This document shows positions 4,561 through 60,774 of a stretch of DNA of 64,000 bases, piece by piece (the first letter of the stretch is position 1; every line of letters begins with the position of its first letter). Below the pieces are notes generated by a model. That model did not search any database. It had not been told where the DNA came from and was given only the letters and a program-made list of their open reading frames with translations. Source of the stretch: Escherichia coli. Its GTDB lineage: Bacteria; Pseudomonadota; Gammaproteobacteria; Enterobacterales; Enterobacteriaceae. The stretch lies in assembly GCF_016026235.1 (NCBI RefSeq), contig NZ_CP065613.1; one strand, written 5' to 3'. A program made the translations under genes and the position numbers.

Positions 4561-6002
4561 GTAATGAACGCATCCCACACAATTAAACACAGAGCAGTAT
4601 GATGGTTAAAAGGGTGAAACTGGCAGGTGTGGAGCCTCGCAGATTTCCGGCATCATAGTGCCCAATACGGGATGCATAAAGCTCCCTCAGACTGGAGACT
4701 CCACAAATGAAATATACACCGGTTGGCGTTGATATCGCAAAACATGTCATTCAGATTCACTTCATCAATGAGCACACAGGTGAAGTGGTTGATAAACAGT
4801 TGCGTAGACAGGATTTTCTGACGTTCTTCGGCAACCGTGAGCCATGCCTGATTGGTATGGAGGCCTGTGGAGGTTCTCAGCACTGGGCACGGGAACTGAC
4901 AAAACTTGGTCATAAAGTCCGGTTGTTGCAGGCCCGCTTCGTTAAGGCATTCATCATGGGCAATAAGAATGATGTGATGGATGCCCGGGCTATCTGGATG
5001 GCGGTTCAGCAGCCGGGTAAAGAAATCGCCGTAAAAACAGAAGAACAGCAGTCGGTACTGGTTCTGCACCGTACCCGCATGCAACTGGTGAAGTTCCGGA
5101 CCGCACAAATTAATGCCCTGCACGGGACGTTACTGGAGTTTGGTGAAACCATCCACAAAGGCCGGGCAGCGATGGAGCGGGAGTTCCCCGAAGCACTGGA
5201 ACGGATGAAAGAGAGACTGCCACCGTATCTCATTATGGTTCTGGAAAACCAGTACAACCGACTGAATGAGCTGGACTCACTGATAGAGGATATTGAAAAA
5301 CAGCTTACCAGCGTGGCGAGGCAGAATGAAACCTGTAAGCGGTTGCTGGATATTCCTGGCGTTGGACCACTTATTGCGACGGCAGCGGTGGCCACCATGG
5401 GGAAGCATCAGCGTTTAAATCGGGGCGAGAGTTCGCCGCATATGTTGGTCTGGTTCCAAAACAAACTGGCTCCGGAGGGAAAGTACGTCTGCTGGGGATA
5501 AGCAAACGTGGTGACACTTATCTCAGGACATTATTTATCCACGGTGCAAGAGCGGTGGCATTAGTAGCTAAAGAGCCTGGCCCGTGGATAACCGAACTGA
5601 AAAAACGTCGTCCAGCCAGTGTAGCAATCGTCGCCATGGCAAACAAGCTGGCACGAACAGTATGGGCGATAACCGCCCATGACCGTAAGTATGACAGGAA
5701 CCACGTCAGTATCAGACCATATTAATCGCTGATACCATTAAACAATGAACTCTTAACAAAAGGGTGAATGCTGAAAGGTTGCTATGGCGGCCAGAGTGAT
5801 GACAAAGACAGGTAAGACCGTGACTCACTAAACCTGAACAGTATTTTGGGCTTGAAGTCCGCCGTGAAAATAAGGGGTGAGTCGGCGAATTACATAGGGG
5901 CTCGCAGCGTTACGGCTGCAATAAAGCCGGATATAAAGCTGCAACCTACCCGTCATGTCAAAACAATGGATGCCTTGCAAACAGGATGCGTTCATATAAA
6001 AT
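4561..6002 (+). mobile_element. IS110-family element (IS1111-subgroup-like) inserted in the integrase gene
   Basis: It precisely splits the integrase frame. 12-bp subterminal inverted repeats ATGAACGCATCC lie at 4564..4575 and 5984..5995, 3 nt and 7 nt from the ends. The 3' non-coding region is long (5726..6002). Confidence 0.8.
4707..5725 (+). pseudogene. IS110-family (DEDD) transposase with one frameshift
   Basis: MKYTPVGVDIAKHVIQIHFINEHTGEVV...DIPGVGPLIATAAVATMG, then a frame change at the G-run 5399..5402. It continues EASAFKSGREFAAYVGLVPKQTGSGGKVRLLGISKRGDTYLRTLFIHGARAV...DRNHVSIRPY. Confidence 0.8.
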
Positions 6003-6677
6003 ACTGTAAATAAAGCCCTGAGGGTGATGGGGTATGACACAACCCAGGATGTCTGTGGCCATGGATTCCGGGCGATGGCGTGCAGTGCATTGATTGAATC
6101 AGGTTTGTGGTCCCGCGATGCTGTGGAACGTCAGATGAGCCATCAGGAGCGTAATGGTGTACGTGCTGCGTATATCCATAAAGCAGAACATCTGGAAGAA
6201 CGTCGACTGATGCTACAGTGGTGGGCAGATTTTCTGGATGCGAACAGAGATAAGGGTATCAGCCCGTTTGAATATGCAAAGATTAACAATCCATTAAAAT
6301 AGTAAGCAGTCCGGGCTGATTGCCCGGACTGCTTTAACTGATTATTTTTCTTTGTAAATGATGACGAAGATTGATGTTCTGGCAAGTTACTCCGGCTTCC
6401 ATTAAAGTCCCTTCGTCATGTTCTTCAGGCTATTTATGACTGTGATTAGCACCAGGAATATCTGGTTTCCATGAGAGCAGGTAATAACCCCCGGTGTTTT
6501 CGGCTGTTCTGGTATCCTTGTCCAACACAGGCAGTCATTATAAACGGTAAAAAATGTATTCACTGTTATGAAATCAATAGTCCTGACGTACTGTTGAATG
6601 TGCTTGTGTTCTGAACCTTGTACAACCAGTACATTTGATACCGAATTATAAACAAAACATTGCATCCAACTTTTTCA

Positions 6678-6700
6678 ATATGGACAATAGTTGTCCATAT
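6678..6700. promoter_or_regulatory. Perfect 10-bp inverted repeat (ATATGGACAA-TAG-TTGTCCATAT), candidate operator upstream of the helicase-PLD gene
   Basis: Read directly from the sequence. It lies 54 bp upstream of ATG 6754 in an AT-rich leader, and a TATATT-like -10 follows at 6709..6714. Confidence 0.3.
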
Positions 6701-6753
6701 GGTGGTTTTATATTCGATAAATCAATGGATTTCATTGAGTCACAGGACTGGTA

Positions 6754-59940: not shown

Positions 59941-60015
59941 CGTGTGTTCTGCTCCTTTTAGGTTTTATCACCTGATTTGCCAGTGTCATCGTCATGACTC
60001 AGAGAGGTAAATACC

Positions 60016-60470
60016 ATGATTCACCTGTTCAAAACCTGCATGATTACCGCCTTCATTCTGAGGTTAACGTGGTCTGCCCCACTCCGGGCACAGGATCAAC
60101 GTTACATCAGTATACGCAATACAGATACGATATGGCTCCCGGGAAATATTTGTGCTTACCAGTTCCGGCTGGATAATGGCGGAAACGATGAAGGATTTGG
60201 CCCCTCACCATCACTCTGCAACCCAAAGACAAATATGGTCAGACGCTGGTGACCAGAAAAATGGAAACGGAAGCTTTTGGTGACAGTAATGCCACGCGAA
60301 CCACAGACGCATTTCTGGAAACGGAGTGCGTGGAAAATGTCGCCACAACCGAAATCATTAAAGCAACTGAAGAAAGTAACGGCCATCGTGTCAGTCTGCC
60401 GTTATCGGTTTTCGATCCCCAGGACTACCATCCACTGCTGATTACCGTTTCCGGAAAAAATGTTAACTGA
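60016..60470 (+). pseudogene. Small exported/lipoprotein-like CP4-island protein with one frameshift
   Basis: MIHLFKTCMITAFILRLTWSAPLRAQDQRYISIRNTDTIWLPGNICAYQFRLDNGGNDEGFGP, then a shift at the C-run 60201..60204. It continues LTITLQPKDKYGQTLVTRKMETEAFGDSNATRTTDAFLETECVENV...LLITVSGKNVN. Confidence 0.6.
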
Positions 60471-60544
60471 TCCCTGAAGTCAGTTTCATGCTTCAGCCTC
60501 TGCCACAACGTATGGCAGAGGCTATTTATCAGGAGAAACCAGAT

Positions 60545-60774
60545 ATGCCGGGTTACACACAGAGTATGTCCTGGCTGAAGGATCTTTCTCATACGGGCAG
60601 GCGGTTGCTGTCATAACCGCTTACCGCAATGTGTTTATCCAGGATGACCCGGGAATGCATTTCCGTCGGGTTATCCGCAACGCGGAAGGTCAGCGACGCT
60701 GCCGGAACTCTGAAGCTGATGCCGGAAAACAGCTTAATGCGTGGCTCGCCAGTGGAGGGCTTCTCAGACAATAA
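60545..60774 (+). pseudogene. DUF905 (YkfF-like) small protein with a 1-nt frameshift after codon 7
   Basis: ATG frame MPGYTQS, then the shifted frame [42 protein letters not shown]...[18 protein letters not shown](stop). Compare YkfF ...[36 protein letters not shown] (from memory). Confidence 0.5.

Follow-up and report, generated by a model that had tools for sequence, protein, structure and literature searches.

The window, i.e., the whole stretch of 64,000 nucleotides of E. coli DNA analyzed here, carries a pheV island with several reading frames that are broken in or beside short homopolymers, and the question arises which of these frameshifts are sequencing artefacts and which are true pseudogenes. 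A sequence-only reading had ascribed most of them to sequencing error. The runs it named all exist and lie at most 4 nt from where they were placed: as read off the window sequence, these are G4 at 5399-5402, C4 at 20128-20131 (base 20127, which had been counted in, is a G), A5 at 20796-20800, CCC at 45734-36, T4 at 48256-59, GGG at 53297-99 and C4 at 60201-04. In the IS66-family element the shortened run is 45899-901, and the adjoining CCC at 45895-97, which had been named instead, is unaffected. The proposal that one-base edits rejoin the frames holds for ISEc11, ISSso6, IS66 TnpC, yeeP and the IrmA-like gene: one additional base at each of 5399, 20128, 20796, 45734 and 45899 gives products of 339 aa (ISEc11), 375 aa (ISSso6) and 533 aa (IS66 TnpC), removal of a G at 53297 gives a 290-aa YeeP-type GTPase, and addition of a C at 60201 gives a 151-aa IrmA protein. 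It fails for the hha-like gene, which has lost 14 bp.

With just 95-99% identity and none of the IS insertions, the best matches among complete RefSeq E. coli genomes cannot separate private from inherited indels; relatives carrying the same locus were therefore found by exact-protein look-ups. Over the ~61 kb compared with such relatives, the window shows six private indels and zero private substitutions. All six are single-base deletions, located at 5399 (G5 to G4), 20128 (C5 to C4), 20796 (A6 to A5), 40148 (A7 to A6), and 45734 and 45899 (both C4 to C3), and all six fall within IS DNA; if the six bases are put back, full-length products result. Window positions 1-20265 show 0 substitutions against UGFA01000002.1 (L048) with gaps only at 5399 and 20128, positions 23415-45156 show 0 substitutions against the same record (L027) with a gap only at 40148, positions 2737-26592 show 0 substitutions against L016, and positions 47598-63117 are 100% identical to L023 and L024. 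Site by site, the deletion at 5399 is missing in L003, L016, L047, L048 and L050, that at 20128 in L016, L047 and L048, that at 20796 in L016 and L009, that at 40148 in L027-L029, and those at 45734 and 45899 in L019-L022. No private indel was found in the ~46 kb of non-IS sequence, which contains 697 runs of at least 4 bases, 61 of at least 6 and 10 of at least 7. IS DNA accounts for ~23% of the homopolymer runs, and the chance of six out of six hits falling in it is ~5e-5 if hits are uniform over runs. Inspection of the six sites by eye revealed no Dcm-site (CCWGG) context. The clean non-IS sequence speaks against the view that a generally homopolymer-prone chemistry casts doubt on every pseudogene call, and the calls outside IS elements stand because no private indel occurs there.

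Two of the four affected elements belong to the IS110 family. ISEc11 (4561..5997, + strand) sits in the pheV-island integrase gene; it is full length with 99.7% identity to annotated ISEc11, and its transposase is frameshifted by the change from G5 to G4 at 5399-5402. The same-locus copies of L003, L016, L009/L047, L048 and L050 carry G5 and an intact 339-aa product, L050 being a 15-kb draft contig that spans from within ISEc11 into the unique flank. The truncated 264-aa product has no record in a collection of 15 billion proteins. ISSso6 (19753..21268, + strand) is also full length, with 99.9% identity to annotated ISSso6, from which it differs by 0 substitutions and solely by the two deletions that break its transposase, C5 to C4 at 20128-20131 and A6 to A5 at 20796-20800. 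At the same locus C5 is present in L016, L009/L047 and L048, and A6 in L016 and L009, L047 and L048 ending at window position 20265, short of the A-run; the complete 375-aa product is encoded in L016 and L009. The Pfam domains DEDD_Tnp_IS110 and Transposase_20 were found on the intact same-locus IS110-family products.

The IS600-type element of the IS3 family (39828..41089, + strand) has a predicted slippery site for a programmed -1 frameshift at the orfA/orfB overlap, which reads A7 (TTA AAA AAA GCA) in relatives and A6 in the window (40142-40147; deletion at 40148), so that orfA encodes 95 aa as compared to 100 aa with A7. The site at 40148 had not been listed in the sequence-only reading. 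A7 is found at the same locus in L027, L028 and L029, which elsewhere differ from the window by 0-1 substitutions, and the products of 100 and 95 aa both match named 'IS600 ORF1' proteins. The 95-aa product is common elsewhere, with 122 contigs including the Sanger-sequenced S. boydii Sb227, and frequent in Shigella genomes, which shows that a natural A6 variant exists. In the IS66-family element (44909..47673, - strand) TnpC is broken twice, by C4 to C3 changes at 45734-45736 and 45899-45901. Both runs are C4 in four independent drafts (L019-L022), where TnpC is intact at 533 aa and the element is internal to contigs of 20.6 to 116 kb, and the 372-aa TnpC fragment of the window has no record in the 15-billion-protein collection. 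Draft contigs of relatives break at IS600 and ISEc43, and those of some strains at IS66 too, from which it follows that these are repeats; IS66 is not always one in this lineage, as the four drafts assemble through it and others break at its edge. The window has two further complete IS copies, ISEc43 (21269 to about 23900) and IS629, and neither shows a private indel.

The lesions outside these elements behave differently, and the suggestion that yeeP and the IrmA-like gene are artefacts is contradicted by eight independent assemblies. The YeeP/YfjP-type GTPase pseudogene (52983..53856, + strand) has one additional G, reading GAGGGCC at 53297-99 where intact genes have GAAGCC. The IrmA-family gene (60016..60470, + strand), described earlier as lipoprotein-like, has C4 instead of C5 at 60201-60204. 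Both sites are base-for-base the same in L019-L026. The 109-aa and 190-aa yeeP fragments are recorded from 10 and 8 contigs, respectively, and the 78-aa IrmA fragment from 11 contigs, some of which come from Logan assemblies of publicly available runs. The yeeP lesion was found in no complete RefSeq E. coli genome, and the IrmA locus is one base longer and annotated as IrmA family protein in the best-matching complete E. coli genomes among the matches listed; the intact 290-aa GTPase and the 151-aa IrmA protein are both present in L007 and L008. Judged by these sequence comparisons, the additional G in yeeP and the missing C in the IrmA-like gene are genuine lineage-specific pseudogene lesions.

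The hha-like remnant (48070..48268, - strand) had been read as an indel in a T-run. Alignment to the intact 70-aa hha paralogue of strain GW-AmxH19 (L034), which has the same A4/T4 run as the window, resolved the lesion as a 14-bp deletion at about 48249/48250, directly following the run at 48256-59, which is unchanged. In the alignment the same deletion is present in truncated copies of two divergent finished E. coli genomes (L035 and L036), and the sequence is identical in L019-L026. A 281-nt segment matches 584 complete E. coli records at at least 99% identity, L035 being the one of the 584 that was aligned. Downstream of the run the Pfam HHA domain is intact; because it begins only past the run, a scan with it was uninformative as to which upstream frame is ancestral.

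Three further lesions had been regarded as real in the sequence-only reading, that in iucB only possibly so, and all of them are real in that they recur in relatives. The integrase gene contains a nonsense codon, GAA to TAA (E58*) at 3769..3771 (+ strand) compared to the intact 420-aa integrase of L001, and this TAA is common to L016 and L048, with L049 having G. The iucB gene (35779..36093, - strand) is split into fragments of 104 and 206 aa by an 11-bp deletion at about 35812 relative to L006, which encodes an intact 315-aa IucB; the region is identical in L027-L033, among them three Logan assemblies of SRA runs, and the 104-aa product is found on 8 contigs. In the records listed for the fragments of yeeP, IrmA and iucB the organism is given as E. 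coli (NCTC-type entries). The IS629-type element of the IS3 family (41737..43048, + strand) carries a 4-nt deletion at 42316 relative to L002 and L006, and L027 equals the window across the whole element, so that the loss is common to both. The genuine lesions belong to a small E. coli/Shigella-like lineage carrying this pheV island.

The attribution of the frameshifts to sequencing error thus stands for the five listed sites in ISEc11, ISSso6 and IS66 TnpC, for which same-locus relatives have the longer run and encode an intact transposase, and falls, by the refuting criterion which that reading had itself set, for the yeeP, IrmA-like and hha-like genes. Overall, it is probable that the six single-base deletions in IS DNA are consensus errors of this assembly and that the yeeP, IrmA, hha-like, integrase, iucB and IS629 lesions are inherited; the six deletions in the four IS copies are most likely not mutations. 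The most likely mechanism would be that accurate short reads corrected a long-read or otherwise indel-prone backbone in unique DNA. This correction would fail in multi-copy IS, where short reads are not placeable, and homopolymer under-calls would survive only there.

It is hardly credible that all one-base frameshifts, including those in the yeeP, IrmA-like and hha-like genes, are artefacts of a chemistry that is homopolymer-prone window-wide. Every listed site does lie in or beside a short homopolymer, one-base edits rejoin frames, and at five of the eight listed sites the change is indeed private to the assembly, but the three genes read the same in eight independent assemblies with fragments recorded from other sources, the hha-like lesion is a multi-base loss, and the long runs of the non-IS sequence are free of private indels. 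The opposite view holds that all lesions are real and that the isolate privately inactivated four transposases when replication slipped at short runs. In nature frameshifts usually do arise by slippage at runs, as exemplified by yeeP and IrmA, IS transposases are free of host selection, and frameshifted IS600 and ISSso6-like copies are known in other genomes. Nevertheless, this is very unlikely, as six private deletions next to zero private substitutions in ~61 kb are far from the indel-to-substitution ratio that established knowledge leads one to expect of natural mutation, as every one of the six falls in IS DNA (P about 5e-5), and as the ISEc11 and TnpC fragments are unrecorded among 15 billion proteins. 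It is highly improbable that four unrelated transposases (ISEc11, ISSso6, IS600 and IS66) were lost by slippage before any substitution arose in 61 kb; if these IS-restricted deletions were true, a process or selection targeting IS transposase genes would be implied.

An explanation by chimeric or converted IS copies deserves somewhat more weight, albeit it is still unlikely. It supposes that the genome has frameshifted copies elsewhere and that the assembler or polisher mixed reads, or that gene conversion moved the variants. The A6 orfA of IS600 is frequent in Shigella genomes, and C4 ISSso6 occurs at many loci of other assemblies, in L046 next to an intact copy within one genome. However, the explanation requires that frameshifted copies pre-exist for four different IS families, the protein collection has no record of the ISEc11 and IS66 variants, and C4 ISSso6 is confined to assemblies of long-read scale, among which at least L040 has flanking C-run deletions, so that these copies may themselves be errors. 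In favor of consensus errors, the exact 148-aa ISSso6 fragment is found at unrelated loci and exclusively on contigs of 226 kb to 4.9 Mb, and several of these assemblies have additional one-base deletions within the IS copy.

According to the Polypolish account, residual errors of long-read bacterial assemblies are mostly homopolymer-length errors that persist in repeats after short-read polishing (PMC8812927). The window resembles the problem described there in that single-base homopolymer changes, here all deletions, are limited to multi-copy IS and the unique sequence is identical to independent assemblies; it differs in that two complete IS copies are clean and that four short-read-type drafts from related strains assemble through IS66. 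Indel-laden long-read Shigella/E. coli assemblies such as CP026823.1 (L040) share the ISSso6 change from C5 to C4 and have more C4 to C3 or A6 to A5 changes in IS copies; in CP026823.1, in contrast to the window with none outside IS, C4 to C3 deletions also affect flanking housekeeping DNA (nupG-speC region compared). The yeeP, IrmA, iucB, integrase and hha-like lesions are similar to the lineage-specific pseudogenes of IS-rich E. coli/Shigella-type genomes. Those in yeeP and IrmA are lineage-wide and missing in complete RefSeq E. coli genomes (for IrmA, in the best matches among those listed), whereas the hha-like deletion departs from this pattern, being present in the divergent finished E. 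coli genomes aligned.

The outcome is practical rather than biological, as it tells which pseudogene calls in the island are trustworthy. The four IS transposase frameshifts ought not to be taken for IS decay or used in judging transposition competence. By comparison, iucB (aerobactin synthesis), the yeeP-type GTPase, IrmA, the integrase and the hha-like gene have truly been lost, and these losses characterize the lineage. Since two genuine lesions arose at short runs, homopolymer location alone is no mark of an artefact; a lesion is better judged by whether independent assemblies repeat it at the same locus.

Position 5998 was considered as a seventh error and rejected: the window (A4) agrees with L003, L048, L050-L053 and another ISEc11 copy, and A3 is found in L016, L009 and L054, so that the site is polymorphic among relatives. 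Real frameshifted IS copies, such as IS600 with A6 and ISSso6-like elements, do exist, and gene conversion or misassigned reads could bring them to these loci. ISSso6-like fragments of 148 aa that are frameshifted in neighboring runs are also present in Logan assemblies. Within the ISSso6 transposase gene C5, A6 and G5 runs are clustered, the start point of the frameshift varies by record and the products are all ~148 aa long; conceivably, the cluster might act as a switch of transposase expression that is hypermutable by nature.

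The window covers a pathogenicity island at a tRNA-Phe gene, adjoining yqgA and downstream of speC. In order, speC, yqgA and the tRNA-Phe gene (about 3325-3400) are followed by an integrase gene split by ISEc11 (4561-5997), an AAA/helicase-like gene encoding 1170 aa, sigA (12737-16594), ISSso6 (19753-21268), an intact ISEc43-type IS66 element, iha, the iutA-iucDCBA genes with an MFS transporter gene, an IS600-type element (39828-41089), an IS629-type element and a second IS66 element (44909-47673). A CP4-type block contains the hha-like gene, yfjI, the yeeP-type GTPase gene, Ag43 (54184-57303), yeeR, the IrmA gene and toxin-antitoxin genes. 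The AAA/helicase-like protein has 1170 rather than 1171 aa due to an in-frame 3-bp deletion at 9463, and this form, present on 24 of the 24 contigs read, marks a lineage.

As complete RefSeq E. coli genomes either have no IS at these positions or reach no more than 95-99% identity to the window, relatives were identified by an exact-protein look-up, i.e., via contigs encoding exactly the window's SigA, Ag43, IucC and 1170-aa protein, which yielded assemblies with the same island architecture. The 4.56-Mb contig UGFA01000002.1 shows no substitutions and two gaps (5399, 20128) against window 1-20265, and no substitutions and one gap (40148) against 23415-45156; JAALAC010000002.1 (L016) shows no substitutions against 2737-26592. 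Two draft contigs (L023, L024) are 100% identical to 47598-63117, and four drafts (L019-L022) covering 44186-64000 (L021 starts at 44528, L022 ends at 63175) have 1-4 substitutions and gaps only at 45734 and 45899. An A-run bordering ISEc11 on the right (5998-6001) was considered as a seventh window-private indel and dropped: it is A4 in the window and in the relatives L048, L050-L053 and L003, and A3 in L016, L009/L047 and L054. Relatives that are otherwise identical differ here through polymorphism or recurrent error, and the window agrees with most of them.

The changes private to the window are six one-base deletions (5399, 20128, 20796, 40148, 45734, 45899), all in homopolymers of 4-7 bases and all within IS elements, accompanied by no private substitution in about 61 kb compared. 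Counting every kind of IS, about 23% of the runs of at least 3 or at least 4 bases in the span compared lie in IS DNA; were six or seven hits scattered uniformly over the runs, every one of them would fall there with a probability of about 5e-5. In the 46 kb of non-IS DNA compared, no private change was found in 697 runs of at least 4, 61 of at least 6 and 10 of at least 7 bases. Two complete IS copies, ISEc43 and IS629, carry no private indel.

The sequence-only reading had located its homopolymer runs correctly to within a few bases. ISEc11 has G4 where the annotated intact element has G5, and G5 is also found in a 15-kb draft contig (L050) spanning from the element interior into unique flank. 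In ISSso6, C5 is shortened to C4 and A6 to A5, and there is no substitution over the 1516 bp of the element. The IS66 TnpC gene has CCC for CCCC at 45734, as had been proposed, and at 45899-901, adjacent to the CCC (45895-97) named instead; in four independent drafts, this element lies within a contig (20.6 to 116 kb), both runs are C4 and TnpC is 533 aa long. Adding back the bases, including that at 40148, restores products of 339, 375, 100 and 533 aa. A collection of 15 billion proteins contains neither the 264-aa ISEc11 fragment nor the 372-aa TnpC fragment.

A second class of lesions is common to relatives. Eight assemblies match the window exactly at the extra G in yeeP, the missing C in the IrmA gene and the hha region. 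With one G taken out at 53297 the yeeP frame encodes a 290-aa GTPase, and with one C added at 60201 the IrmA frame encodes 151 aa; each product is collinear with its annotated intact homologues. The fragments are on record as well, with the 109-aa yeeP product on 10 contigs, the 78-aa IrmA product on 11 and a 104-aa IucB product on 8, the latter two also in Logan assemblies of public runs. The yeeP lesion occurs in none of the complete RefSeq E. coli genomes, and the best matches listed for the IrmA locus have one more base and an IrmA family protein annotation; both lesions are therefore derived in the lineage. The hha-like gene had been taken as frameshifted by a change in run length; its four-base run is the same as in the intact 70-aa paralogue (MEVKTKEDWLYQFRRC...), and it is the 14 bp right after the run that are missing, as they are from both divergent finished E. 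coli genomes in the alignment (L035, L036). In total, 584 complete E. coli records match the 281-nt hha segment at 99% identity or more.

The integrase nonsense codon (E58*, GAA to TAA at 3769), the 4-nt deletion in IS629 and an 11-bp deletion in iucB are shared with relatives and thus real, as had been suspected. The same-lineage draft L056 (DAEAOC010000113.1) has the integrase halves joined with no ISEc11 between them, and the relative L049 lacks ISEc11 and has an intact 420-aa integrase with no TAA. As L056 lacks the IS and L049 lacks both, the insertion and the nonsense codon are recent within the clade. The 11-bp deletion breaks iucB (35157-36093), while the reading frames of iucA, iucC and iucD and of the receptor gene iutA (within 29880-32159) are still open; the lineage may have lost aerobactin synthesis and kept uptake. 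Downstream of iutA, a 16-bp stretch (~29790-29805) that looks like a short local duplication is common to the close relatives L027-L032 and absent from SCPM-O-B-12142 (L006).

The Polypolish paper (PMC8812927) describes residual errors as mostly of homopolymer length and as lasting in repeats after short-read polishing. In a long-read assembly, short reads would fix the unique regions and residual consensus errors would stay in the repeats. The window-private changes are read as such errors because they are deletions only, lie in repeats only, come with zero substitutions and are absent from same-locus copies elsewhere; we infer that they are tied to a workflow of long reads with short-read correction. 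A homopolymer-prone chemistry acting across the window, whether unpolished nanopore, pyrosequencing or semiconductor, had been proposed instead and does not fit, because it should have affected the many long runs in sigA, iha, iutA, iucA/C/D, Ag43 and yeeR, where no private change is seen. The sequence-only reading was thus mostly right in what it observed and half right in how it explained it: of the eight sites that it listed, five, each of which belongs to an IS transposase, are probably artefacts, as probably is the site at 40148 that it missed, and three (yeeP, IrmA, hha) are real. Its suspicion of every pseudogene call is not borne out, as the calls outside IS elements are reliable. Biologically, nothing new is present: a known assembly artefact and ordinary lineage-specific gene decay.

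For ISSso6 and IS600, possible natural variants have to be weighed. Public records have exactly the 148-aa ISSso6 fragment that results from C5 to C4 on 11 contigs, at unrelated loci; with lengths of 226 kb to 4.9 Mb, every one of these contigs is of long-read scale. All 11 IS copies carry this same deletion relative to the reference, and four of the copies contain extra one-base deletions. In one of these assemblies (L040, CP026823.1), the flanking nupG-speC DNA has three C4 to C3 deletions; in L005 (NZ_CP119441.1), a C4 to C3 change affects an ISSso6 copy annotated 'frameshifted'. Both are public complete genomes that served as references and carry probable homopolymer errors of their own. 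We read the deletion on the 11 contigs as a recurrent consensus error, with a real C4 sub-family as a possible alternative. In other members of the 148-aa cluster, some from Logan assemblies, the frameshift lies just downstream of the C-run. Runs of C5, A6 and G5 lie close together early in the transposase gene (20120-20165), and frameshifts in public records start at differing points there, all with products of about 148 aa; it is a hot spot either of errors or of natural slippage. In IS600, the slippery run of orfA (40142-40147) is A6 in the window vs A7 in same-locus relatives. The A6 form (95-aa ORF1) is found on 122 contigs, including several copies in S. boydii Sb227, and is widespread in Shigella records; 40148 is the least secure of the six deletions because this variant is frequent. 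From the frames as read, a -1 shift could not yield the OrfAB fusion in A6 copies.

Window 1-240 consists of the final 240 bp of another ISSso6 copy, 100% identical to 21033-21272; the copy is inserted in speC (ornithine decarboxylase; 168-2174, minus strand), in the gene's 3' portion. The relatives L047 and L048 have speC called at 648 aa, vs 711 aa when intact, and the insertion is common to relatives and absent from L049.
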